The notes below the pieces were generated by a model. That model worked only from the letters and a program-made list of their open reading frames with translations, was not told the DNA's origin and searched no databases. From positions 1 through 64,000 of IMG/VR virus record IMGVR_UViG_2791355157_000004: a stretch of DNA of 64,000 bases; one strand, given 5' to 3'. The translations under genes were made by a program, and so were the position numbers. Numbering within the stretch: the stretch's first letter is position 1; each line of letters starts with the position of its first letter. The DNA is from a virus. Its lineage: Duplodnaviria; Caudoviricetes. Below are positions 5,459-25,880 of this stretch, piece after piece.

Positions 5459-5627
5459 AAAGTTTCCCTGCGATTTCATAAGCGCCGGCATGCGCAACAT
5501 GGGTAAAGGTACTGTGCTGATTGAGCCACCAGGGCGGCGCCCAGATGTGCTTGTGCCGGTTATAGCGGCTCGTCATGTAACCGGTGTCATAGACGATTTT
5601 TAGGATTTCGCCTATAGAAATTGTCAT
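5409..5627 (-). CDS. Mini-protein (MTISIGEILKIVY...)
   Basis: ATG at 5627 with GAGG RBS embedded in a heptad array. Confidence 0.55.
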   Translation of the reverse strand: MTISIGEILKIVYDTGYMTSRYNRHKHIWAPPWWLNQHSTFTHVAHAGAYEIAGKLYDTRRFTGPYLVGWDD

Positions 5628-5685
5628 AAGTATTACCTCACACTTTCTTTCCTCACATTTCACACTTATGAAGTCATACACCACA
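5622..5685. repeat. Heptad array H1 (parS/operator-like) upstream of parA
   Basis: tgtcata agtatta cctcaca (ctttcttt) cctcaca tttcaca cttatga agtcata caccaca; 7-bp period. Confidence 0.75.
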
Positions 5686-5696
5686 AGGGATTTTTT

Positions 5697-6341
5697 ATGA
5701 TCACGATTGTTGGATGTAACAAAGGCGGCGCGGCAAAAACAACCACAGCGGTAAACCTGGCTGTAGGCCTTGCCATGCGCGGACTGGACGTGTGCCTCGT
5801 GGACGCGGACGCGCAGCGTTCGTCGGCCCGATGGTACGCGACCAGGGAAGCGGCGGAGCTCAAACCAACCATCACCCTCGTAGAGAAACGTGAGAACCTG
5901 TCACAGACCCTGAAGAGCCTGGACCAGCGTTTTGACCACGTCATCGTGGACGTCGCCGGCCGCAACTCGCGTGAACTGATCACCGGTTGCACCGTCGCGC
6001 ATCAGATCATCGCGCCCCATCAGTGTTCACAGCTGGACCTCGATACCCTGCTTGAGCTTGAGGAGCAGCTGGTGGCCATCCGTGACCTGAACCCCGATCT
6101 GAAGGCCTACTGCTATCAGAGCATGGCCACCACTAACCCGGTCATTCGCGGCACAGAGCGCAGCGAGTTCCTGGGGTTCGTGCAGGAGATCGAGGGCATC
6201 ATCCCTCTGGAGTCCACAGGCTGTTATCGCAAGGTTTACCGTGACGTGATCCCAGAAGGAAAGTCAGTCCTGGAAACCGAAAACGAAAACGCCCGTAAGG
6301 AAATCATGGGCCTCATTGAGGAGCTGTTCGATGTTAAATAA
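5697..6341 (+). CDS. parA: ParA/ParF-type partition ATPase (short, type Ib)
   Basis: Deviant Walker A KGGAAKTT, DADAQRS, IVDVAG; 214 aa with no N-terminal HTH. Confidence 0.92.
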   Translation: MITIVGCNKGGAAKTTTAVNLAVGLAMRGLDVCLVDADAQRSSARWYATREAAELKPTITLVEKRENLSQTLKSLDQRFDHVIVDVAGRNSRELITGCTVAHQIIAPHQCSQLDLDTLLELEEQLVAIRDLNPDLKAYCYQSMATTNPVIRGTERSEFLGFVQEIEGIIPLESTGCYRKVYRDVIPEGKSVLETENENARKEIMGLIEELFDVK

Positions 6342-6576
6342 GCCGAAACGTGAGATCACGGAAGCTGCTGCGGATGCCCTGGCCAGACGCCTGGCAGACC
6401 GCAACTACGGGGAAGAGCGACCGGATGATACCGTGGCGCGTACGACTATCTCGCTGCCAAGGTCTCTGCTGGTTCAGCTGGAAGACCTGGCCATGAAGAA
6501 CAAGCGCAACGGTATTGAACCGAAGAGCGTGAGCGCCATTGTGCGTGAAGCGACGGAAGCCTATCTGCGTAAGTAA
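6331..6576 (+). CDS. ParG/omega-like ribbon-helix-helix centromere-binding protein
   Basis: Coupled to parA; RHH pattern RTTISLPRSLLVQLEDLA...SVSAIVREA after a flexible N-terminus. Confidence 0.8.
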   Translation: MLNKPKREITEAAADALARRLADRNYGEERPDDTVARTTISLPRSLLVQLEDLAMKNKRNGIEPKSVSAIVREATEAYLRK

Positions 6577-6578
6577 TC

Positions 6579-6641
6579 TGTATGAGGTATGAAATAACAC
6601 TTAATAAGTAATATTTCACACTTCATACATCTCAAATAATA
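6579..6641. repeat. Heptad array H2 downstream of the par operon
   Basis: tgtatga ggtatga aataaca cttaata agtaata tttcaca cttcata catctca aataata. Confidence 0.75.
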
Positions 6642-8513
6642 CCCCGATCGCTGAGTAAATATCCTGACCCTCCAGACGGTATGCCTGCCAGACCAGCGTG
6701 CTAAACCACGTGGGCGGCCGGCACCAGGGATGCTCATGGTAGTCCTTCGGTGGGTGTGGGCTTACGCTGAACAGCTCATTCAGGACGAGGAGTATTGAGG
6801 ATTTCTGCGATCGCATCATTGATGGTGTGCCAGAAAAAGTAATTTCCGCCATAGCCCTGGGCATGGTAGGGCGCGTTGACCCATGCGGACATCTGATTTC
6901 CTATTGCCTGTACGCAGTCGGGTTTACCCTCCCACTGGCAAAGCCGTATGATGTTCCTGGGTTCCTGCAGGTAGACTGCCTGCGCCAGTATGTCGATCAG
7001 CCGCATAATTCCCTCAGATAGTCGCTGGCGTTCGCCGTGAAGCCCGGTACCGGGTCGGTCATAATGCAGGCCTGGTACCAGACGGTGAAATGCGCTTCCT
7101 GCTGCAGCGCGGTCAGGATGTCAGTCAGGCGCGCCATAGACTTTCCCTCCGATCACCTGCACCAGTTTCATGGTCTGAAAGACCGCGTCGTCGTCGAAGT
7201 TATTTTTTATCTGCAGACCGACCACGGCCCAGATATTCTGGTAGGTCGGTTTGTGCCGCAGGAACCAGAGCAGATCACACAGCTTCATAGTCGCATACCT
7301 CCTGCAGCTCCCGCACAAAGCGCATGTAGTGATGCGCCATCTTGCTGCCCAGGTACTCCGTGATCGGGCGGAACCAGACGACGTTGTAAGCTGGTTCATT
7401 GCCTTGCTCGTCGATTTCGGCCAGGACATCCAGGATTTTCATCATACCTCACACTTAATAAGTCATAAGTAATACTATTGGATATGGAGTTCATCCAGCA
7501 ACTCGAAGGCATCATAGAACGGCTCAGGGACCGAACCGGTGCTTTGCTGCCACATCCGGCACAGGCGATTAAATATAATCTCATAGCCGTACTGGTCGAT
7601 CTGCCACAGGAAGTACGTCAGTGACATTATTCACCCTCCCGGGATAACTGGCACATTTCGTTCAGCAACATCAGCAGGTTCACAGACTCGTCTCCGGATA
7701 ACGGCACTAAGATACAGACGAAGCCGGAGAGGTCATTCCCCAGCAGGGACATCAGACCGAGTAACCGCACATTGCCTCCACTGCTCGCATCAGCATCCGT
7801 GCTTTCCACTCGTTCAGCTTGTCAGAGTGGCCTGGCTCAACCTGGTCCATTGCGTTGACTAAAATCCACCAGCCGCCGGTGTAGTGCGCCCGGCCGTGCA
7901 TGTGCTCTAAAACGTTTACGATCCGCATATCGCCTCCGACATGGCCAGAATTTCGAATGCCGAACTGCAGGCACCACGTACCTCATCGCGACGGAAAAGC
8001 CACCAGAGGACTTCTTCTCGCACTCTGAGGTGTTCAATCGAGGTAAACAGGCTCAGGAGCTCTACGAGGCGCACAGAGCCTCCAGCCACCAGATAAAGCC
8101 CAGGTTTGGGACGGCATCGACAGACAGTCCGTGAACGAGGCTGAAGCCATCCTCGCACTCATACCCGCATATCTCCCGTACCAGGTTAACGAGTTCCATC
8201 TTTCCTCCAGTTGCCACCTTGCCGGCAGCACAGAGACGTCTGAGGCACGATCACCGGAAAGGTGAGTGCCCGTTCTTACGCATTAAATGCGGTAACCATT
8301 ATCTGGAATCATTTGTTAATACACAGCTTAAAAGTGCGCACTTCCGAAGCGCTGATCGTGCATCATGCCGAGGTAATCCATCTGCACACTGGCAATTAAA
8401 CTGCCTGCTGACAGGGCTTCGCGGACTGCCAATGCCCATACGTTTGTATACGCATCGACGTGATCAGGTTCATCGAGCATCAACAGGATCTGACACATTT
8501 TGTAAGGTTGCAT
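6616..8513 (-). other. Tandem array of 45-76 aa mini-protein genes (family B)
   Basis: ORFs from the track or hand-translated: 6616-6819, 6776-7006, 6997-7137, 7121-7288, 7275-7442, 7475-7627, 7627-7770, 7752-7928, 7916-8074, 8062-8199, 8328-8513; most start M[KR][LI]x[DE][ILV]L and overlap the neighbour. Confidence 0.7.
7440..7474. repeat. Heptad array H3
   Basis: catcata cctcaca cttaata agtcata agtaata. Confidence 0.7.
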
Positions 8514-8549
8514 AAAGGATCTTCCAGATGATCGCAAGATCTACAGACG

Positions 8550-8581
8550 TAAAAAAGCCCCGTGACATAATCACGAGGCTT
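8550..8581 (-). terminator. Rho-independent terminator closing the putative ncRNA 1
   Basis: Minus strand aagcctcgtga-ttatg-tcacggggc followed by TTTTTT. Confidence 0.8.
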
Positions 8582-8975
8582 AGTTACATTGTCTTTCGCA
8601 GGTGCTTGCTAGGAGTAGTTCGGTTCCCCAACCTTACTGCTCTGACCTGGATGACGACAGCTCAACTTCATCCTAGCAAGCGCAGGAAGGCTTGTCACCT
8701 CCGGTGTATTCCCCAAACTCAATCCAGACATTAACTGACACCTGCAACTAAGACTCTCAGGTCTTTGCCCCGGACTCCGACAGGATAAACAGGCTATCTG
8801 TGATACTGGTCCCAACTACCATATGTTGGCTCTGTCACCGTCTCGCTGTACGATAACAAGCACCTGATAAAGTGAGAGTTTTAGCTAAGTTGAGAATCTC
8901 TGCTGGCTTAAAAGACAGTGACTGTCGTGGTCACTTCGTTCCCCGTTTGTTGTGTATCACAACGGGGGCATTAGG
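8550..8975 (-). ncRNA. Putative large structured ncRNA 1 (~430 nt), class unrecognised
   Basis: No credible ORF; several 7-12 bp long-range complementary segments; ends in an intrinsic terminator. Confidence 0.6.
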
Positions 8976-9012
8976 CACCCTTTTGTCCAAATTAGGAATA
9001 GTCCTAAAATTA

Positions 9013-9054
9013 CTTCACACTTAATTTTTCATAAAAAATACGTATGAAGTATTA
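9013..9054. repeat. Heptad array H4
   Basis: cttcaca cttaatt tttcata aaaaata cgtatga agtatta; next to the palindrome at 8993-9006. Confidence 0.65.
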
Positions 9055-9499
9055 CGATTTTTGACCACTGAGTGCCTTCACGAATTCCATCATCAGGCTG
9101 GGCGAAATATACCGGTCTACCTCCCGGACCATAAGCTCCCATATTTGCCAATAAACGACGTAGTTCGGGTAGTTGACCTCGGGATCGTCTATCTCGGTAA
9201 GCAGATCTGATATGCGCATCAGCTTTCTTCCCAGCGCATGAGCCAGGAATAACAGCTGCTGACTCTGCCACCGCCCAGCGGGCCAGTAACGGCATCATTC
9301 ATCCAGACGGCAAGATAGCGCTCGTCGGTCTCACCGTGTTGCATGGCAATCAGGATGTCAATGACGTGCATATCTCCTCCACAAATCGCATGTAGTTCAT
9401 GTCCAGGGTAACATTGCTTTCCAGTAGGGCAGTACACCAGACTTCGTTATAGCCGTAGCCCTCCTGCTTAAACAGGCGCAGCAGTTCGAGTATCCGCAT
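9052..9499 (-). other. Three further family-B mini-protein genes
   Basis: 9052-9219 MRISDLLTEID, 9219-9371 MHVIDILIAM, 9350-9499 MRILELLRLF. Confidence 0.7.
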
Positions 9500-9632: not shown

Positions 9633-10841
9633 TCATGAAAGGGGATATTCCGCTTTGAGGATCTCTTCATGCAGGTCGTCCGACAGCTTGGCTACGGTGA
9701 TGTTGCTGCCGGTAATCTGGCTCGCAATATCGCTCATCATGCTGCTGCGCGCAATCTGGGAGAAGATTTCGAGGTAATGCCAGCGAACCCAGTTCATGTA
9801 GTTCGGGTGACACTTGAAGCAGTCGTGCACGCACACCAGATGAAACGGATTGTGCTGGCGCATTGAACTGAGCAGGCATTGCAGCTCCAGGTGCTCGTCC
9901 GCGCTGAGGTGGCCATAGTTCTGATCATCCAGATACTCCACCAGCACCAGGCTCATAAAGCCGGATTTGCGGGTGCGGTTCAGGATGCGCAGCAGCTTCT
10001 GGTCACACAGGCGATCGTCACGGGTACCGCCTTCCAGCCATGACTGCGTCTGCAGTCTGGCGACTGCATCCTTGTCATAGCTGCAGCGGCGGCCCATTTC
10101 ACGGACGACCAGGGCATCCACAGAGTGGGTGACGTTTGCCACCAGGCTGATGCCTTTCTCGGTGCCGGCATTGACGTAGTGCTCGATGTCGATCGGCATA
10201 CCGAGGAACTGCACCGCGGTGGAGACCTTGTCCATTACTTTAATTACAACATCCCCGCCGTCTGGCAGGGTCCAGGAATGGTCCTCTGCGAACGGCTGCC
10301 ACAGCGTCTGAATGTCGTCACGCAGGGCGCGAACCCCTGGAAGGATGGCATCCTGCATTTTGTAGAACATGTCCAGCGCTGGCGTGCCGTCGCCGAATGC
10401 GGATTTAGGCTGCGCCTGTGATCCGTACATCGAGGTCATCAGGGCGTTTTTGACCACCTTGCGAACCAGCTGGCCAACCACGTTGAGTTTCTCGTTCATC
10501 CAGGCGTAAGCGTTGGTGTAAACGTCCTGGCGTTTCTGGCCGGTCAGCCCGCAATTACGCGCTGAGATTTTGCAACCGGACAGGGCAGCCAGGATCTGAA
10601 TGCCAGAGGCGCACGCATCGTGGCCAACCATGTAGCCTGAAGGGACACCCGCCAGGGTGTCACGCCAGGCGAGCACACCTGCAAGAAACTGAGCCGGTTC
10701 CTCTGCGTCACGCACAAGGGATTCCAGATGATGCTCATTCTCGCTGAACCAGTTCAGGCGGGTCTCGTACTGCTCGCCATCCAGGCCAAAGCTGTTGGCA
10801 ATGTCGATCATGAGGTACTGCTTGCCAGTGAAGTGCTGCAT
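9633..10841 (-). CDS. N4-like RNA polymerase II subunit 2 (gp16-like)
   Basis: T7-type motifs A (DACASGIQ), B (RKVVKNALMTSMYGS) and C (VHDCF); 402 aa matches N4 gp16 size. Confidence 0.93.
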   Translation of the reverse strand: MQHFTGKQYLMIDIANSFGLDGEQYETRLNWFSENEHHLESLVRDAEEPAQFLAGVLAWRDTLAGVPSGYMVGHDACASGIQILAALSGCKISARNCGLTGQKRQDVYTNAYAWMNEKLNVVGQLVRKVVKNALMTSMYGSQAQPKSAFGDGTPALDMFYKMQDAILPGVRALRDDIQTLWQPFAEDHSWTLPDGGDVVIKVMDKVSTAVQFLGMPIDIEHYVNAGTEKGISLVANVTHSVDALVVREMGRRCSYDKDAVARLQTQSWLEGGTRDDRLCDQKLLRILNRTRKSGFMSLVLVEYLDDQNYGHLSADEHLELQCLLSSMRQHNPFHLVCVHDCFKCHPNYMNWVRWHYLEIFSQIARSSMMSDIASQITGSNITVAKLSDDLHEEILKAEYPLS

Positions 10842-10852: not shown

Positions 10853-10880
10853 AGTATGAAATGTGAAGTATGAAATAACA
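10853..10880. repeat. Heptad array H5 directly upstream of the RNAP2 start
   Basis: agtatga aatgtga agtatga aataaca. Confidence 0.7.
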
Positions 10881-10931: not shown

Positions 10932-11183
10932 TTAGTCGGTGATGCGGCCGAGGATACGTGCGACGTTATAGTCGGTATTCAGTTCGGTCTCGATCTCCGC
11001 GTCGGTCTTGCCGAACAGCGGGCATTTACCCATGTCACGTGAGCCATCCGGCTTGGCGTTTTCGCCGGTACAGCAGGTTGCACACTTCGGGTTCTTGGAG
11101 CAGAAATGCTTCTCCATTTCAGCCGGGATGGTTTTAATCAACTGGGTGATTTTGATCAGCTGCTCAATGCGTGTTAAGGCCAT
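10932..11183 (-). CDS. Cys-rich mini-protein (family A, divergent)
   Basis: C..CxxCC..CPLF pattern. Confidence 0.65.
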   Translation of the reverse strand: MALTRIEQLIKITQLIKTIPAEMEKHFCSKNPKCATCCTGENAKPDGSRDMGKCPLFGKTDAEIETELNTDYNVARILGRITD

Positions 11184-11386
11184 GATTGTGTGTCTCCATA
11201 AATTGATAGTGGTGCAAATCGTGTAACGGGTGAGGCGCGAAAAGGACAGTTAGCACATTGAATCCCATGATGCTTACAGCTTTCCGGTAGGTCATTCAGC
11301 ACTGCGCAAGGTTCCCACATCCTGCGAAATGCTGTGTCAGCTTCCAGCTGGTGGTGCATTAAATCCAGGATGGTTCCTATTTTCAA
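11174..11386 (-). CDS. Cys4 mini-protein (family A)
   Basis: TTG start KIGTIL; C..C..CANCPF. Confidence 0.65.
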   Translation of the reverse strand: MKIGTILDLMHHQLEADTAFRRMWEPCAVLNDLPESCKHHGIQCANCPFRASPVTRFAPLSIYGDTQSWP

Positions 11387-11588
11387 CTACCACCTCTAGC
11401 GATCGTAGTAACGGATCTTCTGCCGGCGAGAAGATGCCGGACAGCGGACAGGCTTTGCAGTAAATAAATTCACAGGAGTCCTCCCTGTCCTGTATCAGCG
11501 TACAGATCGGATGCGCGTAAGCGCTCCCGCTCGGGCTGCCGTGATTGGCCACGTGTTTGATGGCCAGTAAAACATCAGAAGTTTTCAG
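11337..11588 (-). CDS. Cys4 mini-protein (family A), CTG start
   Basis: AAGGAGG RBS 5 nt before CTG AAA ACT TCT GAT GTT TTA; C..C..CKACPL. Confidence 0.6.
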   Translation of the reverse strand: MKTSDVLLAIKHVANHGSPSGSAYAHPICTLIQDREDSCEFIYCKACPLSGIFSPAEDPLLRSLEVVVENRNHPGFNAPPAGS

Positions 11589-11626
11589 TGCCGCCTCCTT
11601 TATTTTTCGTTCAGGTCCGATCTATA

Positions 11627-11642
11627 CTGTACATACATACAG
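11627..11642 (+). promoter_or_regulatory. LexA (SOS) box
   Basis: TA-CTGTACATACATACAG-TA, near-consensus, 17 bp before the UmuD'-like ATG. Confidence 0.9.
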
Positions 11643-11659
11643 TAAATGGACCGGAAATT

Positions 11660-12034
11660 ATGGGTTTCCCCTCACCAGCCACGGACTACGTTGAGCATCG
11701 AATTTCCCTCGATGGGCTATGCAATACCCGTGCGCCTTCCGTCTACCTGTTTAAGGCAGGTGAGACGGTAATGCGCGCCGGGATCAGCAAAGGTTCTCTG
11801 CTCGTCGTTGACAGCGCGATTACGCCATCAGACGGTAACGTGGTGGTGGCCATGATTGATGGAACATTTCGTGTGGCGCGTTACTGTACGCACCCGGCAC
11901 CGTATCTGGAAGATATGAATGTGCCGGGGCGTCGGCTCGCGACAGCAGGTGAGGATGTCATGCAGGGGGAGGAGACGATTTGTTTTGGCGTAGTCACCCA
12001 CGCTCTGGGAGTGCTGCGGTCAGCCTACCAGTAA
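11660..12034 (+). CDS. UmuD'/HumD-like S24-fold protein (pre-processed form, catalytic residues missing)
   Basis: Begins MGFPSPATDYVE like cleaved UmuD'; GETVM and FRVARY replace the GDSM serine and TVKR lysine motifs; SOS box upstream. Confidence 0.85.
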   Translation: MGFPSPATDYVEHRISLDGLCNTRAPSVYLFKAGETVMRAGISKGSLLVVDSAITPSDGNVVVAMIDGTFRVARYCTHPAPYLEDMNVPGRRLATAGEDVMQGEETICFGVVTHALGVLRSAYQ

Positions 12035-12343
12035 GCGGGCAATCGTGCGGACGGCTTCCAGCTCAGCCGGCGTGGCTTTGCCTTTAAGGGCTGCATTACG
12101 TGCTTTCCAATCCAGGCTTTTCACCTGGTCTGCCAGGGCGACGTTCGCCGGCGTGCCGGCGATCGCCACTTCCATCGGGTAACCCTTGATCTTGGTGGTG
12201 AGCGGGACGCACACCATCAGGTCGTGCTTATTATAGTAGGCCGGGCTGAGTACCAGCGCCGGTCTGCGGCCGGCCTGTTCGTGGCCAGCCTGCGGGTTGA
12301 AGTCCAGCCATACGATATCGCCGGCTTCAGGGACAAATGCCAT
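12020..12343 (-). CDS. mazF: MazF/PemK endoribonuclease toxin
   Basis: GDIVWLDFNPQAGHEQAGRRPALVLSP, VPLTT, ALADQVKSLDWKAR. Confidence 0.95.
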   Translation of the reverse strand: MAFVPEAGDIVWLDFNPQAGHEQAGRRPALVLSPAYYNKHDLMVCVPLTTKIKGYPMEVAIAGTPANVALADQVKSLDWKARNAALKGKATPAELEAVRTIARLLVG

Positions 12344-12594
12344 TACCAGATCTCCTTACCTACTTCGCCGAAGTCCTGCTCACCGTGACGGTTTTCAGGC
12401 GTGATGCGGCTCACCAGGGCTTCCAGGGTGGGCTTAGCGCGTGCTGGTTCAATCACAAGGCGCGACACGTTAAAGGCATCCTTCTGGACGGTCACTTCGA
12501 CTTCAGCGTCGATACCGAGGTCCATCAGGTTCATGAGGTTAGTGGGGATGCGGACTGCAGGGCTGTTGCCCCAGCGCTTAATAGTCTGACGCAT
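12343..12594 (-). CDS. mazE: MazE/AbrB-family antitoxin
   Basis: IKRWGNSPAVRIP, TLEALVSRITPENRHGEQDFG..GKEIW; coupled to mazF. Confidence 0.95.
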   Translation of the reverse strand: MRQTIKRWGNSPAVRIPTNLMNLMDLGIDAEVEVTVQKDAFNVSRLVIEPARAKPTLEALVSRITPENRHGEQDFGEVGKEIW

Positions 12595-12605
12595 GATGCT
12601 TCTCC

Positions 12606-12668
12606 GTTTATACGTTTGTATAGACAGATTACTCTTTTTTGAGCAATGTATCTACATTAGTATCTACT
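12606..12668 (-). promoter_or_regulatory. mazEF promoter/operator palindromes
   Basis: gtttatac-gttt-gtatagac, aatgta-tc-tacatt and repeated gtatctac, resembling the E. coli mazEF operator. Confidence 0.65.
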
Positions 12669-12684
12669 TTTCTGAATGGCAGCG

Positions 12685-13494
12685 TCACTCCACCAGCTCC
12701 GCGTCAGCGAGCTGCAGCACCGCCTTGGCATAGTCATTCCCCTGGTAGGAGACGTGATAGCCCTGGCAGTAGGTGCGCAGTCGCTTATCCACTTTGTGGG
12801 TGAGGTGGAAGCGGTTGCCCTCGTTCACCAGCAGGGCGAACGTGTGCATGCTGTCCTTCTCAAAGCGTTCAAACGCCTCAACACGCTTGCGGTAGTCGCG
12901 GAAGCTTTCCCCGTCACGCGGCTTGTCGAGGTTCTTCCGCTTATTGCGGATAGTCCTGATCACCCGCTCATTGAGCGCCAGCGGCACCCGGTTAAACCGG
13001 TTGATGCTGTCGTAACAGAGGTCACCCTCGTGGTGGTTGTTCTTCAGGATGAGCGAATCACCGCGATCGTTAAGGTAGCCGCTGCCGCGATTACCGGTCA
13101 CCTCAAGCGGTGGCACAATCATTGGCGGCAGGTACTGATACTGGTGCATCAGCTCCTTCACGTCGTTGCTGACATCCAGGTTAATGATGAAGTTCATCGT
13201 CTGCATGTCGAAGTTCACCAGCTCAGTGTTCGCGCAGATGTACTCCAGGTGTGCCGCGGTCTGCTGGTAGTCGCCGTCGAAAAAGCGCGCCAGGATGCCG
13301 ATCAGCACGTTGGCCGGCGCCCGACGGTGAAGCACCATCTGAACCAGCAGCTCGATGACGAACCCTTCCGGCATAGCCAGGCTTTCGACGATCGCCATAA
13401 CGGCGGTGTCGTTCTCAAACTCACGACGCAGCAGCGGCAGCGTCTGGTACCGCGCAAAGCGCTGTTCAATCAGTTTCTGGGTTTCGTATTTCAT
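12685..13494 (-). CDS. N4-like RNA polymerase II subunit 1 (gp15-like)
   Basis: 269 aa as N4 gp15; YLPPMIVPP, GSGYL, HKVDKRLRTYCQGY (DxxGR-like motif). Confidence 0.9.
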   Translation of the reverse strand: MKYETQKLIEQRFARYQTLPLLRREFENDTAVMAIVESLAMPEGFVIELLVQMVLHRRAPANVLIGILARFFDGDYQQTAAHLEYICANTELVNFDMQTMNFIINLDVSNDVKELMHQYQYLPPMIVPPLEVTGNRGSGYLNDRGDSLILKNNHHEGDLCYDSINRFNRVPLALNERVIRTIRNKRKNLDKPRDGESFRDYRKRVEAFERFEKDSMHTFALLVNEGNRFHLTHKVDKRLRTYCQGYHVSYQGNDYAKAVLQLADAELVE

Positions 13495-13660
13495 AGGTGA
13501 TGTCCCTCAGAAGGTGTTTATCTTTATCAGGCGTGCAGTCGAACGGACAGTTGCGGCAGGCGATTGCCCCGCACCTGATACCGTTGCTGGCATCGCACAG
13601 TGGGTTATTTAGCGGATCGGTTGTGTCGTTGATGAGACACAGCAGGGTCGAGAGTTTCAT
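13466..13660 (-). CDS. Cys4 mini-protein (family A)
   Basis: MKLSTLL...NPLC...CGAIACRNCPF. Confidence 0.7.
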   Translation of the reverse strand: MKLSTLLCLINDTTDPLNNPLCDASNGIRCGAIACRNCPFDCTPDKDKHLLRDITYEIRNPETD

Positions 13661-13829
13661 TCAGCTTGTCCATGATGTGCGGCACACGTGACGACACGGC
13701 ACCGCCGCTCAACGGGCAGTTGATGCACTCGATGCCGGTACAGTCCAGCGCTGGGACATTACAGACAGGGTTGCCCGAGATGAGCAGTTCGCTATACGTG
13801 AACTCCACTAACAGGGGTTTCAGTTTCAT
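13605..13829 (-). CDS. Cys4 mini-protein (family A)
   Basis: MKLKPLL...NPVC...CTGIECINCPL. Confidence 0.7.
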   Translation of the reverse strand: MKLKPLLVEFTYSELLISGNPVCNVPALDCTGIECINCPLSGGAVSSRVPHIMDKLNETLDPAVSHQRHNRSAK

Positions 13830-13983: not shown

Positions 13984-13988
13984 CTGGT

Positions 13989-14246: not shown

Positions 14247-14281
14247 ATTTGTCTCCGAAGTTAAGAAGGAAAAGGCAAACG

Positions 14282-14300: not shown

Positions 14301-14345
14301 GGGCGAGTAATTATGCAAGACCTTCAGACAAAAACCAGATTATTC

Positions 14346-17887: not shown

Positions 17888-17942
17888 GACTATCCCTCAG
17901 CGATAAAAAATAACCGGGAAGCCCGAAGGCTCCCCGATTGGA

Positions 17943-18335
17943 TTATTTCATCAGTGCTGCCAGTACCGCGTTGGCCAGCGGGTTGTCGTTCTTCGCTGGC
18001 TCATCGTTCTGTGCTGCGCGACGCAGCTGCACGGTGAGGTTCAGCTCGACTTCTTTACCCGGCTCCAGCTGGGCGGCCAGCAGCTGCAGCTGTTCCAGCA
18101 GCGTGTTCTTGGCCTGCGCCATCTGGTTCCATTCGCTGTTGTTGGTGTTGGCACGGGCAGGTTTCATGTCGTCCAGCGGTAAGCCCACTGGCAGTGAGAT
18201 GAACTCTTCGCCGGCCTGCACACCCACGTTCAGCCAGAACTCGGATGGTTTGCGCGGTTGCTGCGGATTCTGGGCAGACGCGTTGTTGCCTTTAACCAGA
18301 GATGATGAAGTCAGTGCAGAATTTAAAACAGCCAT
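17943..18335 (-). CDS. N4 gp2-like ssDNA-binding activator of RNAP II
   Basis: FWLNVG, FISLPVGLPLD, AKNTLLEQL, LEPG and VQLRR match the recalled N4 gp2 pattern; 130 aa; own hairpin promoter and terminator. Confidence 0.85.
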   Translation of the reverse strand: MAVLNSALTSSSLVKGNNASAQNPQQPRKPSEFWLNVGVQAGEEFISLPVGLPLDDMKPARANTNNSEWNQMAQAKNTLLEQLQLLAAQLEPGKEVELNLTVQLRRAAQNDEPAKNDNPLANAVLAALMK

Positions 18336-18380
18336 GGTATGTCTCCGAATTTAAAAGAAAAAGGTTTTGGGCATAGTTAC

Positions 18381-18399
18381 CCATTAGCGGCGAAGCCGC
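18381..18399 (-). promoter_or_regulatory. vRNAP hairpin promoter for gp2
   Basis: CC-ATTA-GCGGC-GAA-GCCGC. Confidence 0.9.
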
Positions 18400-18441
18400 C
18401 GCTAACAGACAGGGAAGGGCGTACAGAAAGCAGGATCGGGT

Positions 18442-18789
18442 TCAGAAATGCAGAACACCCTGCGCGACAGGGCTGGGCATGGCCATAAGGCTGCTCAGGT
18501 CTGCGCTCTCAAAATCAGGGGCATCTTTATCCAGCTCGTACTGGGTGCGGATGTCATTGAGGATGGCACGGTTGAGTTTGATGGCGCTCAGATCGCGCAG
18601 TGCCATGATAATGGCCGATACCGGCTGGATACGTCCTGGCTCTTTCACTCCCCGCAGCAGCACACGCGAATCTTCTAAGAAGCGCGCTCGCAGTGCCGGG
18701 TCGGATTTGTGGCTCCAGATCATCTGACGGGTCAGTTTACGGCGGGTCCACATACGGCGGGCAAGGGCAGCCCGTGCAGTCATACACAT
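18442..18789 (-). CDS. Basic early protein with its own hairpin promoter
   Basis: ATG at 18789 with AGGAG RBS, 115 aa, Arg-rich N-terminus. Confidence 0.7.
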   Translation of the reverse strand: MCMTARAALARRMWTRRKLTRQMIWSHKSDPALRARFLEDSRVLLRGVKEPGRIQPVSAIIMALRDLSAIKLNRAILNDIRTQYELDKDAPDFESADLSSLMAMPSPVAQGVLHF

Positions 18790-18818
18790 AATTGATCTCC
18801 TGATTTGATGGGTGGTGG

Positions 18819-18837
18819 CCATCAGCGGCGAAGCCGC
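18819..18837 (-). promoter_or_regulatory. vRNAP hairpin promoter
   Basis: CC-ATCA-GCGGC-GAA-GCCGC. Confidence 0.9.
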
Positions 18838-18839
18838 TA

Positions 18840-18874
18840 CTTCACATCTATGAAGTGTTACTTATTAAGTATGA
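18840..18874. repeat. Heptad array H7 abutting the hairpin promoter
   Basis: cttcaca tctatga agtgtta cttatta agtatga. Confidence 0.7.
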
Positions 18875-20256
18875 AGGATTCATGCAACGCTTCCAGCGTT
18901 CGCATGCTCTCCATGTAAAACTTTACATGATTGCTTATTGGGTCCTGCACGTGGTTTTTAACCACGGTCAGCATCAGTATGGCAATGTACCGGTTATCGC
19001 CTTTTGCTGCGTGCAGCTCGGCGAGCACCTCATAGGTGCGCATGATTCAGCTCCTGTGCAATGGCCACGGTCAGGGCGATATCGGTGATATCCCTGAATC
19101 GCGGCATTTTGTGTTTGGGATGTTTACCCAGGTACCAGGCGAGGATAATGGTCTCCTCGAACTGCCGATCGCGGTGGGCGAACATGTCATGGAGGATTCT
19201 GGCTGGTTTAACATAATCCGTATTTAGCGCACTATAGGCCATAGATAGCCTGCGCGACAGAACCCAGTGTCAGTGTGTCGCAGGATTCTTTGGTGCGCCA
19301 GGGTGCGTTCAGCCAGAGTCCGTAGACGGCCCTCATGACGTTCACGTTGGCACCAACCAGCTCATCGCTGCCGCGCATGAGCATATAGATTTCACCTGCC
19401 TTCATAGATAGTCCTCACTAATGCAGCCAGTTGGCCGGTGTCCATTAACTTGTGTTGCGTAACCATAGTGCCGTCTTCCAGCTTAGCGCGCCGGTAAACA
19501 CGCCAGACGTGATATACCCTGCGTGCCGCGGTATTGTCCTCGATGCGCGGTGAGTCACCGCGAATCTCTGCAAAAATCTCTGCTGCTTTTAACAATTTCT
19601 ATCCCCAGCTTAACCAGGCCACGGGTGTCGCCTATTTCATCTTTGTACGTCCGGAACAGTGCGTGTAATGCGCCGGTGTACTCCGCGTCAGGATTACCCC
19701 TTAACAGAATGAAGATCTCAACTGCCTTCATATATGTCCTTCGCCATAACGGCCAGTTTCCGTGCTGTTATTCTGTGGAGCACAAAATCCTCACCGTCTT
19801 CCCACGCATACCACACTTCATTTATCAGTCTTGATGAATTCAGATGCGTCGCGACGCTGGTGCCCCGCATCAGTAAAAATATCTCTGCTGCTTTCATGGA
19901 TCTCCTTTGCGGTTATCATCAGGCGCATCACGGGTGTGCGCTGACCACCGTCAAATCCCCTGGCAGTGCGCCACACCTGCTCAATAGGGCTATTGCGGAA
20001 GTATGACGACTCCAGCGTAAAGATTGTGTGCAGCACCTCAGACGTCGTCACCCAGCTTCCCCAGTTTATCGGCATACTCTTTATCAGGCTTACCGGCCAG
20101 ATGCCAGGCATAGCTGGCCATGTAGACCAGTGGCTTCTTCCTGCCCTCATGCCTGATCATGCTGTAGCGGTAGTGATTCCATGCACGACGTAATTCTGTC
20201 TGGTTAATCTGGTCTGCTGTGATAATTAAATCAGCGACAAGCTCACTTAATTGCAT
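18858..20256 (-). other. Tandem mini-protein array (family D, MKAxEI[FY]xx[MLI]RG)
   Basis: 19232-19405 MKAGEIYMLMRG, 19392-19595 LKAAEIFAEIRG, 19555-19731 MKAVEIFILLRG, 19718-19897 MKAAEIFLLMRG; flanked by 18858-19043, 19030-19242, 19818-20051 and 20038-20256. Confidence 0.75.
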
Positions 20257-20401
20257 AGATGCCTTTCAGATCAGAACGAATAAAGCGGAATGGCAAATGC
20301 CATCCCGCTTTTGATTGTTACCAATGCTGCCCGATAATGACTGTTATCTTTGCAGATCCCAGCATATATAAAAGCAGCTCACCGGTTTTCATTATACTGC
20401 C

Positions 20402-22288
20402 TTACGGTTGTTCCTTACCTTTCAGAATACTGTCCAGGTCGTCGAGCGCCGTGTTCAGCTTCTTCAGTGGCTCATGCTTTATGTCTTTGCGATAGCAATG
20501 ATCGGTTAGCATAGTCCTGACTTTATGACTGCTGAGCATCATGATAAGGATGTTTCGTATTTTCACTATTCAACACTTAATTGAAACCCCAGTTTCTTAC
20601 AGATGCCAGGGATATGTTTAAACGAGGGCAATATAGTACGGCGATAGCCTTTCGTTGAATAGTCAGCGTGAGAGATAATTGCTTGTTTAAGGGTTGGTTT
20701 GGTCCACAAATATTTCATTAGTGCTTACTCCATGGGTATGCACACACCGGCCAGGATGCGTGCGGAAGTATGTGACATTGTCACACGGGATTAACGTCAG
20801 TGCATTTCGCGCTGATGTATATTTCCTTGGCGAGTTGCTGGGCGAGCCACCAGTCACTGAAACTGCCCCCGGCCATGCGGAGCGTATGCAGAATTGCACC
20901 GCTGGTGGCGCTGGTGGTAAGAATAAGATGAAGCACTTCATTCAATGACATGGCGCTTCCTCTTATTATCACGATGGTTCATGATGAGCGCCATAATAAT
21001 CCAGAAGGCGATTAAGCCTCCTGTTAACAGAGTGTCTTTGCACATGGTTCACCTGCGGATAATAAAGGTTACAGCATGATGTTAATTAACCACTTCGCTC
21101 TTCCGAGATAGTTTCCGGTGAACCGGATACCATCAATGGTTATTTGCGCGTGGTACATGTAAAAGTCCTGAGGTATTTCACTGCGCTGCGTTGTGTTCTC
21201 GATAATAAACTCATCGATGCCAGCTAGTGCGTGAAGCTTTATTTGTTTGATAATTTCAGGTGTCAGATAAAGTAATTTATCGTCATTCTGATTACGCAGC
21301 ATGTTATATTTCAAGGATGTTCACCAGGTTTAATGCCATAGACAGGTTATAAGAGGGAAATACCATGCCGGCATGATTAGCATGGATAAGGAAGCAGTTT
21401 TCTAGGGTTGAGCCGGCTTTTATCTCAAGATAAATGCGGACCAACACCTCGCTGAGTCGTACAGATTTCACGTAGCGTGACCTCTGTGACTCCAGACCTC
21501 GTGAGTCTGGAGTCACAATCAATGACGGCGTTTGCGCATGTGGTATGGAAAATGGCGCTGCGCCGTGCGGTACAGCTTCCAGCGCTTGCGGATGATCAGC
21601 CAGTGATGGATAGACTGCACGCTGGCGAACACGGCCATGATGATGGCCACGCCAATGAGCCCGATGCCTAACCAGGCGCTCAGGTGATGGGTGTCTTCGA
21701 CGTGTGATGCGGCGTTAATCAGTAATTCGTGCATGGTATAGCTCCTGAATGATGTGCTGAATTTTTATGGGTACCAGATCGGGATCTGATGGTATGGCGT
21801 CAAAAACCAGAGGGTTGAGGCGCCACTGCGTATAGGTATTGGCCTCGATGAGGATGTAATGCAGGTATTCCACGAACGTCACCACCACCTCCTGCGGATG
21901 AGAGTGTTACGCATCGCAGATCTCCTTCATGACAAAGAACACTTCATCCGGATAGATGGCGGTAACCGTGTAACTGTCGGTGGCTTCGATGGCACTGTTG
22001 AACAGTCCGGCATGCAGCAGGTTTGTTCTGCTGGCATTCTCGATCAGCGCACTGAACAGGATGGTGATGAGGCTATTCGGTATTGCGTGCGTAGAGCGCT
22101 TACGCTGTGAATTGTCCGGTGAACTCGTTGACATAAATCTGCTTCTCTTCACGTGACAACGTAATGGTTGTCTGGCCCTGGATTCTCAGGACAAAGGGCA
22201 ATGCCATATTCAGGTCGGTGCCCAGAAGATACTGTGCAAACTTAACGGCTTGAGCGTGGTCAATGCGAACTTTCTTAAAGTTGAACAT
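20402..22288 (-). other. Cluster of small hypothetical early genes, partly AT-rich
   Basis: e.g. 20402-20566, 20781-20972, 21069-21314, 21304-21522, 21519-21734 (membrane segment), 21907-22152, 22100-22288. Confidence 0.55.
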
Positions 22289-23130: not shown

Positions 23131-23131
23131 A

Positions 23132-23159
23132 TTTCATACTTAATATTTCACACGTATGA
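23132..23159. repeat. Heptad array H8
   Basis: tttcata cttaata tttcaca cgtatga. Confidence 0.65.
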
Positions 23160-23480: not shown

Positions 23481-23969
23481 TCAGATGATTGCGTTAAGTT
23501 TGGCGGTAAGCTTCAGAATAATATCGTTGAGCTCTTTGGCCGTATTGCCGTTGGTAACGTTACGCAGGGAACCGCACAGCTGGCTGATCAGGTCAGCGAG
23601 GTGCTGGCGCTCCTGCGCGCGCGCATAGTCTTCGCTTAACGAAGAATTAACAACTACTTTTTCTGGGGAATTGACTTCTGCCTCCGACTGCGCGCACGTG
23701 CTGACGTGTGTCACCTGCCAGTCATCGGCGTGCATATCACCCTGGCTCGGCACCCAGGGGACGACGCTGCCCTGCGCGTTCTTCAGCGCGTAGTAGCTGC
23801 CGTACGGAACGAGGTTATCGGGGAAGTGGTCTTTGATCACCTCCATGCGTGCCGGGTAGTTGCCGGCGGGGACGAACCAGACAAACTGGCCCTTGCCGTT
23901 CCAGCCCTGGCGCTGGATAGCCTTGCCGTCTGCGGTACATGCACGCAGCGCTTCAGCGAAATTCATCAT
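23481..23969 (-). CDS. DUF2829 / Tad2-like protein with C-terminal extension
   Basis: MNFAEAL..GKAIQRQGWNGKGQFV...VPWVPSQGDMHADDW is the DUF2829 signature. Confidence 0.85.
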   Translation of the reverse strand: MMNFAEALRACTADGKAIQRQGWNGKGQFVWFVPAGNYPARMEVIKDHFPDNLVPYGSYYALKNAQGSVVPWVPSQGDMHADDWQVTHVSTCAQSEAEVNSPEKVVVNSSLSEDYARAQERQHLADLISQLCGSLRNVTNGNTAKELNDIILKLTAKLNAII

Positions 23970-24214
23970 GGAACCGATTCCTTTTTTGGTTTTTGGGGGG
24001 GCGTGCTGGCCTTGTATTTGCGTTTGCCCATCATCTGCAGGCGCAGATCCTGGATAACGGCGATGGCGCACATCACTGGGTAGTGGCGGTAAAGCGCCAG
24101 CAAAGAATGCTCCAGCTCGGCCATGTTGCGGTGCATCCGCTTACGCACGCACTCTTCACCCGCGCAGTGGCCGATGAAGTACGCGAGGCACATCAATAGA
24201 ATGGTGATGATCAT
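23966..24214 (-). CDS. Small membrane-anchored protein
   Basis: Hydrophobic N-terminus; coupled to the downstream gene. Confidence 0.55.
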   Translation of the reverse strand: MIITILLMCLAYFIGHCAGEECVRKRMHRNMAELEHSLLALYRHYPVMCAIAVIQDLRLQMMGKRKYKASTPPQKPKKESVP

Positions 24215-24266
24215 GTGGGTCCTTGGTTCATTTGAGGGCGCCGCAGCGCCCCAGCCGGGAAGGAGA

Positions 24267-24572
24267 TTAGCGGGATAACTGCATATTCATGAGCGATGGG
24301 TGGACTAACTGGCGGGTCATGTCGTAGCCCTTGCGGAAGAGGCAAGTGGTCAGCAGATCGAGACTCAGTTCAGACAGCTGGCCAGTCAACATGGCGCGGG
24401 CTTCATCGATGGTGATCTGGTGATCCTGGGCGAAGTGGGCGACCCCATTCTCTTCACCGCCGTAATCCATTGTTAACAGAATGAGAAAATCTGCTTTTAG
24501 TTTTAAAACCTTACGCTCGATATGGTTATCAGTCAGAACGTCAAAGGGGGAAGCGACTTTTAGCGACAGCAT
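24267..24572 (-). CDS. XRE/HTH_37-like transcriptional regulator (repressor candidate)
   Basis: SPFDVL...LKLKADFL...AHFAQDHQITIDEARAMLTGQLSELSLDLL...GYD resembles the HigA-like HTH_37 pattern; palindrome 24591-24604 just upstream. Confidence 0.6.
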   Translation of the reverse strand: MLSLKVASPFDVLTDNHIERKVLKLKADFLILLTMDYGGEENGVAHFAQDHQITIDEARAMLTGQLSELSLDLLTTCLFRKGYDMTRQLVHPSLMNMQLSR

Positions 24573-24590
24573 CTGGTGGACCTGCTCAGT

Positions 24591-24604
24591 TAGGAATTGT
24601 CCTA
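24591..24604. promoter_or_regulatory. Palindromic operator-like motif TAGGA-N4-TCCTA (one of about 11 copies)
   Basis: TAGGAATTGTCCTA; related copies at 568, 802, 4698, 8993, 14335, 25809, 28161, 36582, 37317 and 59210. Confidence 0.75.
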
Positions 24605-25013
24605 TTTAAGCACCGCTTTAGCAGCGCGGCAATGACCTGTTCCAATTCTTTTTTGACTAACTTTCTTTCACAGTCGAGCTCTGTGAGGTGGTCATTAAGA
24701 TGGTGAAACTTTGCCATCAGTTCTTGCTGAGATCGTGTCGTCATGCGGGGCCTTCTTTTATAAATATTCTATATATATCAAATACCTAATCCGTGGCGCC
24801 AGGCGGCTCCTTCCGTTCGCCAAATTGTGTGTATGATGTAACTATTCAGGTACACTAAGGTAAGGCGCCCTCAGGCGCCCTTCATTAAAAATTCTAATGC
24901 TAATGACCGTTTTTCACGGTTCGATATTCGGGTGGTCCGGCTGACAAAAAGAGTGCGATCGCCACTGTCAATCCGGAAGAAAAAGCGACCGTTTAACTGA
25001 CCCTGGCGGACCT

Positions 25014-25391
25014 TCAAATCTTGCAACCGTCGCAGTCATCGTCGTTCAGGTCAGCCAGCAGATCGCGGGTTTCGCGTTCCTGGTACAGCGTTTCTTTTAA
25101 CAAATAACCCTCAAGTGGCCAGATTTTTTCGAACGCGTTATCGAAGGCGCACTTCTGGCCAATCTCTTCGTTGTAGTTCGACGGATCGACACAGGCGCTG
25201 GTGCCTTCCACCTTGAAGCCGTTCTCCAGCTCGATGATGCAGACGGTCACCAGGCTCAGCTCACCCATGGTGCGCAGGTCAAGTGACGCGTCGGGCGCGA
25301 GTGCTGCAAGCACGGCGCGGCCGGCGTTGATGTAGTGGACGCTGCGGATTTTGCTCTGGATTAATTCAGGTGTGATTTTACGTTCGGTCAT
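25014..25391 (-). CDS. Phage gp49/gp66-family protein (possible nucleotide-signal sponge)
   Basis: TVCIIELENGFKVEGTSACVDPSNYNEEIG...AFEKIWPLEGYLL signature. Confidence 0.85.
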   Translation of the reverse strand: MTERKITPELIQSKIRSVHYINAGRAVLAALAPDASLDLRTMGELSLVTVCIIELENGFKVEGTSACVDPSNYNEEIGQKCAFDNAFEKIWPLEGYLLKETLYQERETRDLLADLNDDDCDGCKI

Positions 25392-25412
25392 AGTGATTCT
25401 CTCTGGTTCAGA

Positions 25413-25763
25413 AAGAGAAAAGCCCAGCCGAAGCTGGGCTATCCCATATTGTTACGCGGCGCTCCGACCCCTCGGGACCCGTGTATTTGATAGTGGTAGC
25501 TATCTGGGAAGGCACTGCATGTGGCGGTAAATCCGGGAAGAAACCCGCCGGCAATGCCCTCTCAGATAAATACGCCCCAATCCGGTAACAGAGAAGGGGC
25601 AGAACTCTGGTTTCCGCGCTTATCAGGCGCTTCCGCGTAACAGGCCACTGACCTGTGGTGACGAAAAATATCCGTAAGGAAATGGATTGCACAGCATCAT
25701 CAGCAAGGCGGCACCAGCGCTAATGCTAAAGGCGTCTCGGGGAAACGGCTTTCACCTTAGGGC
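25413..25763 (-). ncRNA. Putative structured ncRNA 2 (~350 nt), class unrecognised
   Basis: Bounded by a sigma70-like promoter and a terminator (agcccagc-ttcg-gctgggct-TTT); nested long stems; no convincing ORF. Confidence 0.6.
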
Positions 25764-25769
25764 CTGCTC

Positions 25770-25798
25770 AGAATGCCAATGCGCAAAAGATGCGTCAA
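25770..25798 (-). promoter_or_regulatory. Sigma70-type promoter for ncRNA 2
   Basis: TTGACG-17 bp-CATTCT with a TG extension. Confidence 0.65.
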
Positions 25799-25880
25799 TA
25801 ATTATTTTTCGGATTAATCTTATAGGATAGCATTTAGGTTTGTGCTTGTCGGACCGCAAGCACTCAAAAAGGAACCTGAG

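Follow-up and report, generated by a model that had tools for sequence, protein, structure and literature searches.

Escherichia phage N4 and the other Schitoviridae are classed as lytic, with pseudolysogeny reported (PMC10654107), and their lytic program starts from an injected RNA polymerase. Genomic evidence suggests that some members of the family are not strictly lytic, as integrase-bearing N4-like proviruses have been proposed (Zheng et al. 2023, PMC10654107). Those elements are proposed to integrate, and the words plasmid and partition do not occur in the main text of that paper. The phage-plasmids P1, P7, D6, N15, and phiKO2 carry a partition system, an addiction module, and a LexA-controlled, preprocessed UmuD′ (HumD, gp26). 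In type Ib partition, represented by delta/omega/parS of pSM19035 and ParF/ParG/parH of TP228, a small ParA without an N-terminal DNA-binding domain works with a ribbon-helix-helix (RHH) partner and with 7-bp repeats in direct and inverted orientation that overlap promoters. In pSM19035, omega represses copS, delta, and omega through WATCACW heptads; at least four heptads are needed for ATPase activation, and three are too few for centromere function (PMC9499535).

The sequence analyzed here, IMG/VR record IMGVR_UViG_2791355157_000004, belongs to an N4-like phage of Pantoea. The window is a 64-kb stretch of a 73.3-kb genome that assembles as a circle, with an end overlap of 149 bp. The genome has the hallmark genes and the two-block architecture of N4, including the virion RNA polymerase (vRNAP), both RNAPII subunits, SSB, primase, Sak4, RusA, capsid, portal, and terminase; DNAP, a Dda helicase, an exonuclease, and ThyX are encoded in the 9 kb outside the window. 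Embedded in its early/middle region are plasmid-type modules (Table 1). The earlier note described a complete N4-type transcription and virion gene set together with parA, an RHH partner, centromere-like arrays, mazEF, a LexA-boxed UmuD′-like gene, and an XRE regulator, and this observation is confirmed, although the XRE assignment has weaker support and the virion genes lie outside the 5622-25822 region to which the note assigned the finding, at 25.8 to 58.8 kb.

Table 1. Features of the N4-like genome (positions in the 64-kb window) and the sequence evidence for each
Position	Strand	Feature	Evidence
5624..5678	.	Heptad (TCAYA core) array upstream of parA, six sites phased by 7 nt, the last four contiguous; candidate centromere and operator	Only cluster of ≥4 sites in the 73-kb genome, 0.005 expected (200 shuffles); 0 of 59 permuted motifs give 7-phased clusters
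5697..6341	+	parA, small Walker ATPase, ParF-like (type Ib), 214 aa	phrog_164, 3e-32; PDB ParF, 1e-8 over its full length; 100% identical in phage G19, 42.7% to phage-plasmid D6
6331..6576	+	RHH partner (ParG/omega-like centromere-binding protein, predicted); alternative TTG start at 6316	Arc-like phrog_2639, 7e-5; only weak PDB RHH hits, E of 0.08 to 0.5
6580..6636	.	Downstream heptad array, two inverted plus two or three direct repeats, between the RHH stop codon and a convergent phage ORF	Read directly from the sequence; repeat families D1/D2/D14; arrays at the same place in loci L003 and L004
7442..7467	.	Heptad triplet at the start of a small minus-strand ORF	Conserved in G19
8545..8985	-	Structured noncoding module with a 5′ hairpin and an intrinsic terminator at 8581-8555; candidate RNA-based replicon	Homologous to the ~465-nt core shared by tiny Rep-less plasmids; 99.1% identical in G19
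9015..9047	.	Heptad triplet/palindrome about 30 to 70 nt upstream of the noncoding module	
9633..10841	-	N4 RNAPII large subunit	phrog_2051, 4.6e-139; Pfam RNA_pol
10855..10873	.	Three perfect direct heptads between a terminator (10910-10891) and the RNAPII large-subunit start codon; candidate operator	
11625..11644	+	LexA box, perfect 20-nt palindrome of the CTGT-N8-ACAG type, overlapping a -10-like TATACT; second, weaker box at 11490-11505	
11660..12034	+	UmuD′-like (HumD-like) protein, 124 aa; residue 2 aligns with Gly25 of UmuD, Thr at the catalytic Ser60 position, Ala at the Lys97 position	Alignment to PDB 1umu/8gmt; phrog_811, 4.7e-38
12020..12343	-	mazF/pemK toxin	PF02452, 5.6e-25
12343..12594	-	mazE (AbrB/SpoVT-type) antitoxin, its end overlapping the mazF start	PF04014, 1.5e-6; phrog_4324
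12685..13494	-	N4 RNAPII small subunit; mazEF and umuD′ sit between the two RNAPII genes	phrog_2166, 9.3e-93
23134..23159	.	Heptad triplet at the start of a 58-aa minus-strand ORF	
24267..24572	-	XRE/HTH_37-like protein, 101 aa, a lead only	No Pfam hit at E≤0.01, no PHROG hit at E≤0.001; language-model/structure likeness to HTH_37 (score 0.95, TM 0.64 to 0.70); annotated as a helix-turn-helix protein in G19
25842..48348	+	Late block: gp69-like protein, TerL, tailspikes (one an EPS depolymerase), portal, MCP, and other virion proteins	
48376..58845	+	Virion RNA polymerase, 3489 aa	phrog_2206, E=0
59883..60647	-	N4-type SSB	phrog_743, 1.3e-75

The closest relative is Pantoea phage G19 (PV483189.1), deposited as a phage from sewage, part of a phage collection, with a P. 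agglomerans host. It is 95.8% identical over 95% of a 20-kb query and contains an identical UmuD′, the same mazEF, and all five heptad clusters. The two genomes differ by a few indels in the early region (7781-7888, 13498-13838, 14814-15157, and 20395-20560). The G19 record has only 31 annotated features and no statement on lifestyle, and a literature search found no paper on this phage. The nearest isolates other than G19 share ≤50% identity in a conserved virion protein. Among the 40 of 66 ParA hits examined, which did not include three Acinetobacter records, G19 is the only N4-like phage that we recognized.

An unrelated N4-like element of Acinetobacter is recorded both as a circular plasmid of an isolate, pRBH2-3 (NZ_CP110465.1), and as a phage, vB_IME_Ab2712 (OK149216.1), the two being 99.5% identical over a module that holds ParA, a Rep-like winged-helix protein, and a serine recombinase (resolvase). 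Its vRNAP matches phrog_2206 (E=0), and its MCP and RNAPII are 57% and 37% identical, respectively, to those of the Pantoea phage. However, its ParA, which also has a small partner, is only 33% identical over 113 residues, the Rep-like protein and the recombinase are absent from the Pantoea phage, and no mazEF, umuD′, or RNA module is seen in its annotation. It looks like an independent acquisition.

The parA-RHH pair is a mobile two-gene cassette. It is the only thing shared with 4 of 4 non-N4 IMG/VR contigs, where the RHH gene accompanies parA in every case, and it is also found in 33 bacterial loci, with the RHH gene in 30 of them. The nearest phage relative of ParA is in the P1-like phage-plasmid D6. 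As in pSM19035 and TP228, the repeats occur in direct and inverted orientation, and four contiguous repeats lie at the par promoter, but the similarity of the RHH protein to solved RHH proteins is marginal, the host is Gram negative, and the extra sites sit in the transcription cascade of a phage. The heptad arrays are nonrandom and specific to this cassette family: they lie within 2 kb of the cassette in 16 of 33 bacterial loci and flank it in two other loci (L003 and L004). The additional triplets, one of them in front of the RNAPII large-subunit gene and three at other sites, lie next to ribosome-binding sites of phage genes and could be phage promoters or translation-start motifs rather than RHH operators.

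The ~440-nt noncoding module is homologous to the only sequence common to six small plasmids, members of a family of tiny, Rep-less enterobacterial plasmids, and it replaces the RNAI/RNAII/ori segment in a ColE1 chimera. Of its 110 predicted base pairs, 20 show compensatory changes, compared to 11.3±2.2 in shuffles (0 of 500) and 2 to 4 in slid controls. Searches found no Rfam RNAI in the module and no detectable similarity to the ColE1 ori; its role as an origin is inferred. Apart from G19, no phage was found to have it.

The UmuD′ homologs among the 40 of 74 phage records examined are, as far as we recognize them, temperate phages and phage-plasmids, such as N15, P1, P7, D6, and phiKO2; identity to the proteins of N15, P1, and D6 is 40 to 47%. 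In contrast to P1/P7/D6 and N15/phiKO2, this phage has an entirely different virion and transcription program and, among the ORFs scanned, no Rep protein, protelomerase, Cre/lox-type recombinase, or C1/CB-type repressor. No integrase was found among these ORFs either, and no repressor of the lysogeny type could be identified with confidence. LexA boxes were found only near umuD′ and at 17450, with none near vRNAP or the early genes, and no route into the lytic cascade from the plasmid state was found.

The earlier note had proposed, as a check, that the contig be a circular replicon in an isolate assembly at about 1x chromosomal coverage and that the rest of the molecule be inspected for Rep, integrase, or protelomerase; the outcome favors its reading. 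Eight sequencing runs of one organism, from two studies, contain 100% of the sampled words, although they may represent one strain or one campaign. In the one of the eight runs examined in detail, which is isolate-like (5.08 Mb in 2,352 contigs), the phage is a separate 73,132-bp contig at word depth 1054, about twice the depths of the only two other contigs compared (526 and 481); such depth is not a copy number. The exact ParA sequence is found on 13 contigs, none longer than 73,312 bp, and the par, umuD′, and mazEF regions are also covered in three other runs from separate studies.

These data are best explained, with moderate confidence, by an N4-like phage that can also live as a low-copy-number extrachromosomal prophage, i.e., a phage-plasmid, a lifestyle not described for this phage family. 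The analysis itself establishes the full N4 transcription, replication, and virion gene set and the presence of horizontally acquired plasmid modules, namely, the type Ib partition cassette with its flanking repeats, the mazEF addiction pair, the LexA-boxed, preprocessed UmuD′, and the structured RNA module shared with tiny Rep-less plasmids. The remainder is inferred from sequence and assemblies alone, including stable carriage, a circular episome, copy control, silencing, and binding of the heptads by the RHH protein. In this view, some genomes would circularize through the terminal repeats after infection, replicate from the captured RNA module using host enzymes, and be segregated by ParA/RHH acting on the heptad centromere, whereas cells that lose the element would be killed or arrested by MazF. 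Because early genes need the injected virion polymerase, a genome inherited without it would be largely silent by default, and the RHH protein may reinforce this by binding heptad operators in front of the RNAPII large-subunit gene and the RNA module, which would resemble omega of pSM19035. UmuD′ would be expressed on SOS induction, as in P1, N15, and D6. The interpretation in the earlier note, a low-copy episome that must silence a program normally started by injected vRNAP, is partly supported: its argument from gene content holds and is strengthened, but silencing and a host-RNAP route into the lytic cascade remain inferences, and its statement that N4 and its characterized relatives are virulent is dated in view of the proposed proviruses.

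A less likely but possible alternative is a virulent N4-like phage with morons, whose presence in isolate assemblies reflects an unregulated carrier state, pseudolysogeny, or lysate carryover, with the par and toxin-antitoxin genes at most prolonging that state. Thousands of lytic phages occur in bacterial assemblies, often in carrier-like states (PMC12768965), and the absence of an identified repressor, integrase, or Rep protein and the isolation of G19 from sewage fit this view. On the other hand, four independent plasmid-type modules co-occur and are conserved across about 4% nucleotide divergence, a LexA box only makes sense for DNA resident in uninduced cells, the depth is about 2x rather than far below or far above that of the other contigs, and the independent Acinetobacter lineage, recorded as a plasmid, has its own par/rep-like/resolvase kit.

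It appears unlikely that the acquired genes serve the lytic cycle, with MazF acting in host shutoff or counterdefense, ParA positioning replicating phage DNA, UmuD′ modulating the host SOS response or Pol V, and the RNA module acting as a decoy or regulatory RNA. The mazEF genes do lie on the phage's own transcription strand, the same early region carries a Tad2-like antidefense gene, and PHROG lists MazF-like proteins as host takeover morons. However, parA-RHH and umuD′ are on the strand opposite to phage transcription and have their own control sites (the heptad array and the LexA box), their nearest relatives are in plasmids and phage-plasmids, and the relatives of the RNA module are autonomous plasmids. 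An assembly chimera or contamination, which might be suspected in a record from an automated virus catalogue, is very improbable and already contradicted by the data, as the same arrangement is found in the independently deposited G19 genome and in contigs of four runs from four studies, including the single 73,132-bp contig with 0 differences.

The record is 73,312 bp long, of which the window covers bases 1-64000, and is classed by IMG/VR as having direct terminal repeats and as 100% complete. Its two ends share an exact 149-bp overlap, so it is a circularly closed assembly. The N4 gene set is complete. The giant ORF encodes a virion-packaged RNA polymerase (vRNAP) of 3489 aa that matches phrog_2206 over the full profile (E=0), and profile searches identify both RNAPII subunits, TerL, the portal, a gp56-type major capsid protein (MCP), the tailspikes, primase, N4-type SSB, Sak4, RusA, dUTPase and an ATPase, whereas DNAP, a Dda-like helicase, an exonuclease and ThyX lie in the 9 kb beyond the window. 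These features place the element among the Schitoviridae (N4-like phages). One of the tailspikes contains an EPS-depolymerase domain (phrog_4250, 1.3e-183), which fits a capsulated plant-associated host. No integrase, Rep protein or protelomerase, which the earlier note had suggested looking for in the rest of the molecule, is found among the ORFs scanned, and the small ORFs of the early region mostly have no family. Rfam at the gathering threshold gives no matches in the whole window, and ARAGORN finds no tRNAs.

Coordinates of the features in the window (heptad, repeat with a TCAYA core)
Feature	Coordinates	Strand
Heptad array upstream of parA, six sites, the last four contiguous	5624-5678	
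ParA	5697-6341	
Heptad array downstream of the cassette, two inverted plus two or three direct repeats	6580-6636	
Heptad triplet at the start of a small early-region ORF	7442-7467	
Structured non-coding module	8545-8985	minus
Heptad triplet just upstream of the non-coding module	9015-9047	
Two RNAPII subunits	12685-13494 and 9633-10841	minus
Three perfect direct heptads between a terminator and the start codon of the RNAPII large subunit	10855-10873	
LexA palindrome, 20 nt, perfect, 15 nt before the ATG of the UmuD'-like gene	11625-11644	
Further LexA box matches	11490 and 17450	
Overlap of the mazE and mazF genes	12343	
Hairpin-like stretches of 33 and 37 nt	21485-21517 and 25401-25437	
Heptad triplet at the start of a small early-region ORF	23134-23159	
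Tad2-like domain protein	23481-24071	minus
XRE-like protein	24267-24572	
Tailspike with EPS-depolymerase domain	31974-34664	plus
vRNAP	48376-58845	
Tandem families of tiny paralogous ORFs	11174-14978, 19232-20256, 6776-9437 and 16887-19043	minus

ParA is a small Walker-type ATPase of 214 aa without an N-terminal HTH domain. It matches phrog_164 (3e-32), and its residues 9-210 align with residues 10-201 of the type Ib ATPase ParF (PDB 4dzz, 1e-8). The protein of 81-86 aa encoded downstream is Arc/RHH-like, but the support is weak, with phrog_2639 at 7e-5 and RHH proteins in PDB only at E values of 0.08-0.5. It has a conserved beta-strand motif and is co-inherited with ParA.

The partition cassette is flanked by repeats with a TCAYA core that are spaced by multiples of 7 nt. 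The upstream array is the only cluster of 4 or more sites in the 73-kb genome, compared with 0.005 such clusters in shuffled sequences, and clusters of 3 or more sites number five, against 0.35 expected. Among 60 permutations of the motif, TCAYA gives the most clusters and is the only one whose clusters are phased by 7 (4 of its 5, as opposed to 0 for the other 59). The same arrays flank ParA-RHH cassettes in two non-N4 viral contigs, and they lie within 2 kb of the cassette in 16 of 33 bacterial loci that carry a 57-78% identical ParA. They therefore belong to the cassette, as a putative centromere/operator. The closest worked-out analogue is pSM19035, where the RHH protein omega binds 7-bp WATCACW repeats that overlap the copS, delta and omega promoters, and at least four contiguous repeats are needed to activate ParA (PMC9499535). 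The other four clusters are triplets, and all five clusters are identical in Pantoea phage G19. These triplets might be bound by the RHH protein, but they could also represent phage promoter or translation-start motifs.

MazF and MazE are clearly recognized (Pfam, 5.6e-25 and 1.5e-6), with the PemK/MazF-fold toxin gene preceded by an overlapping gene for an AbrB-type antitoxin. The S24 protein starts, after its Met, exactly at the residue equivalent to Gly25 of UmuD, the site of RecA-mediated cleavage (its residue 2 aligns with Gly25), and has Thr and Ala in the positions of the catalytic Ser60 and Lys97. Judging from its sequence, it is therefore a pre-processed, non-cleaving UmuD', similar to P1 HumD. 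The LexA palindrome in front of it is one of three matches in the window, against 1.03 expected, and 6 of 100 shuffles reach that number. The XRE-like protein has no Pfam hit at E≤0.01, and the evidence for it is limited to a feature likeness (0.95, 192 shared features) and a structural likeness (TM 0.64-0.70) to HTH_37 clusters.

The non-coding module contains no convincing ORF. On the minus strand, it starts with a conserved hairpin and ends with an intrinsic terminator. It is collinear, at about 77% identity, with a ~465-nt core found in 156 PLSDB records, and nearly all of the 40 records listed are small plasmids of Enterobacterales and Pasteurella. The core is also found in 34 of 5426 Escherichia coli genomes, with 33 of the places on plasmids, whereas among 50,697 phage records only G19 has it. 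It is the only sequence common to six plasmids of 1.7-11 kb. A Pfam search of three small-plasmid ORFs finds no Rep domain, and these plasmids have no MOB-suite replicon type; their replicon appears to be uncharacterized. In pMUB-MIN14-5, the ColE1 mob-rop backbone (96% identical) is retained, but the RNAI/RNAII/ori segment of ColE1 is replaced by a 1060-nt segment containing this core, which is read here as a natural replicon swap. An alignment of 7 sequences predicts 110 base pairs, and 96% of cells are paired. Of these pairs, 20 show compensatory changes, against 11.3±2.2 in shuffles (0 of 500) and 2-4 in slid controls, although the structure was derived from the same alignment and there are few independent lineages. 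This module is inferred to be an RNA-based, Rep-independent replicon.

The possibility that this module is a ColE1 RNAII/ori was considered but is not supported. The Rfam RNAI model recognizes the RNAI of ColE1 itself (73.8 bits) but finds nothing in the window or in five of the small plasmids, and a lenient Rfam search of positions 8300-9200 gives only chance-level hits. An nhmmer profile gives no hit at the ColE1 ori, and local alignment scores are not above those of shuffles, although two short collinear motifs with equal spacing are seen. The rop gene next to the module in one of the small plasmids (L011) belongs to the ColE1-derived part of that plasmid and is therefore no evidence for a ColE1-type module. 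The capture primers for Pasteurellaceae ColE1 plasmids (PMC5864857) are absent from the Pasteurella plasmid segment. Accordingly, the module is not assigned to the ColE1 type.

ParA and the RHH protein are the only products shared with four other IMG/VR contigs of 56-84 kb that lack the N4 capsid gene. The nearest phage ParA is that of the P1-like phage-plasmid D6, and the bacterial species-representative genomes hold no copy closer than 78% ParA identity. The UmuD' relatives among the 40 of 74 records listed are temperate phages and phage-plasmids. In 9 of the 33 bacterial loci with ParA relatives, a UmuD-like gene (about 40% identical to that of the phage) lies within 6 kb of the ParA cassette, suggesting that the two modules may travel together on enterobacterial plasmids. 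In the phage, parA-RHH and umuD' lie on the strand opposite to phage transcription, and mazEF and umuD' are wedged between the two RNAPII genes. A search of IMG/VR with the RNAPII large subunit returned a single distant locus (45%) and no close par-less relative that would define the insertion borders.

Pantoea phage G19 is deposited as a phage isolated from sewage with Pantoea agglomerans as the host; it is 95.8% identical over 95% of the 20-kb query and keeps every module. The stretch is found in 20 of 24 listed public sequencing runs, none of them listed as RNA. Eight runs of one organism, from two studies, contain 100% of the sampled words, and the rest are surface, plant, tobacco, indoor and unspecified metagenomes and runs of two further organisms. 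Four runs were examined at the contig level. In one of these (5.08 Mb in 2352 contigs, so isolate-like), the phage is a single 73,132-bp contig with no differences, at a word depth of 1054, whereas the only two other contigs reported, which matched through 33-37-nt hairpins, have depths of 526 and 481. This ratio of about 2 fits a low-copy episome, but it comes from one run and three contigs, and word depth is not a copy number. The hairpin-like stretches match other contigs in all four runs; the second of them is a terminator-like hairpin, and this is probably a trivial resemblance to host terminators. The runs from the three other studies cover par, umuD' and mazEF with a few percent of differences, and their indels lie elsewhere in the early region. 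The exact ParA sequence is found on 13 contigs, the longest of which is the 73,312-bp record, and no integrated copy was seen.

A second lineage is represented by the only PLSDB record with an N4-type capsid gene, the circular 75,126-bp plasmid pRBH2-3 of Acinetobacter baumannii (NZ_CP110465.1). A search with a vRNAP fragment returned nothing from this plasmid, but its giant ORF is identified as a vRNAP by its PHROG profile, and RNAPII is present as well. It also encodes a ParA with a small partner, a 248-aa Rep-like winged-helix protein resembling replication initiators (phrog_270, 6.9e-9) and a serine recombinase. The same module is 99.5% identical in the phage record vB_IME_Ab2712 (OK149216.1). 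Thus, another N4-like element is on record both as a phage and as a plasmid, with a non-homologous plasmid kit.

The earlier note described an N4-type gene set accompanied by parA with an RHH partner and centromere-like arrays, mazEF, a LexA-boxed UmuD'-like gene and an XRE regulator, and this observation is confirmed and extended, with weak support for the RHH and XRE assignments. Its interpretation, a temperate phage-plasmid that must silence its lytic programme and re-enter it by a different route, is supported in part: a phage-plasmid is the best explanation and is held with moderate confidence. The gene and site content, its conservation, its origin in plasmids and phage-plasmids and its occurrence as a free contig in isolate-like data are established by the analysis, whereas circularization, stable inheritance, virion production by this element, replication from the RNA module, partition, MazF toxicity with its neutralization and post-segregational killing, binding of the RHH protein to the heptads and the silencing that it might mediate, and the route of induction are all inferred. 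Lytic phages are common in isolate assemblies (PMC12768965), which keeps the alternative of a mere carrier state alive. Literature searches, supplements excluded, found no N4-like or Schitoviridae phage-plasmid, no paper with the term pRBH2-3 and none on G19 or Ab2712, and a search for N4-like phages of P. agglomerans found nothing on this phage. Pfeifer et al. 2021 (PMC7969092) describe an Acinetobacter "AB" phage-plasmid group of about 110 kb and state that few phage-plasmids are podoviruses, but the term N4-like does not occur in that paper. Zheng et al. 2023 (PMC10654107) propose lysogeny for integrase-bearing N4-like proviruses and do not mention plasmids or partition.

A more far-reaching possibility, which is compatible with the evidence but remains doubtful, is that N4-like phages have evolved plasmid prophages at least twice and that, in this lineage, the RHH partner of the partition protein doubles as the lysogeny switch. 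In this view, it would act through omega-like heptad operators located at the par centromere, directly in front of the RNAPII large-subunit gene, where it would block the middle programme, and in front of a captured small-plasmid primer-like RNA, where it would set the copy number, while the dependence of early genes on an injected polymerase would make the inherited genome silent by default. Schitoviridae are treated as strictly lytic and are favoured for phage therapy and biocontrol, including against Erwinia, Pantoea and Acinetobacter. A lineage that can persist as a plasmid, carrying an addiction module and an SOS mutagenesis factor, would change that safety assumption. It would also add a podovirus with an injected-polymerase cascade to the short list of phage-plasmid architectures and would make it testable how a programme started by a virion enzyme gets silenced and restarted. 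The RNA module links phages to the large, poorly understood population of tiny Rep-less plasmids.

The protein with a Tad2-like (Thoeris anti-defence 2) domain matches PF11195 at 2.4e-21. The early region also contains tandem families of tiny paralogous ORFs, none of which has a family assignment. One of these is a Cys-rich family with a C..C.NCP motif (about nine copies), the second is an MKxxEIFxLxRG family (about five copies), and the third is an MR(I/L)xDxLxEI family.
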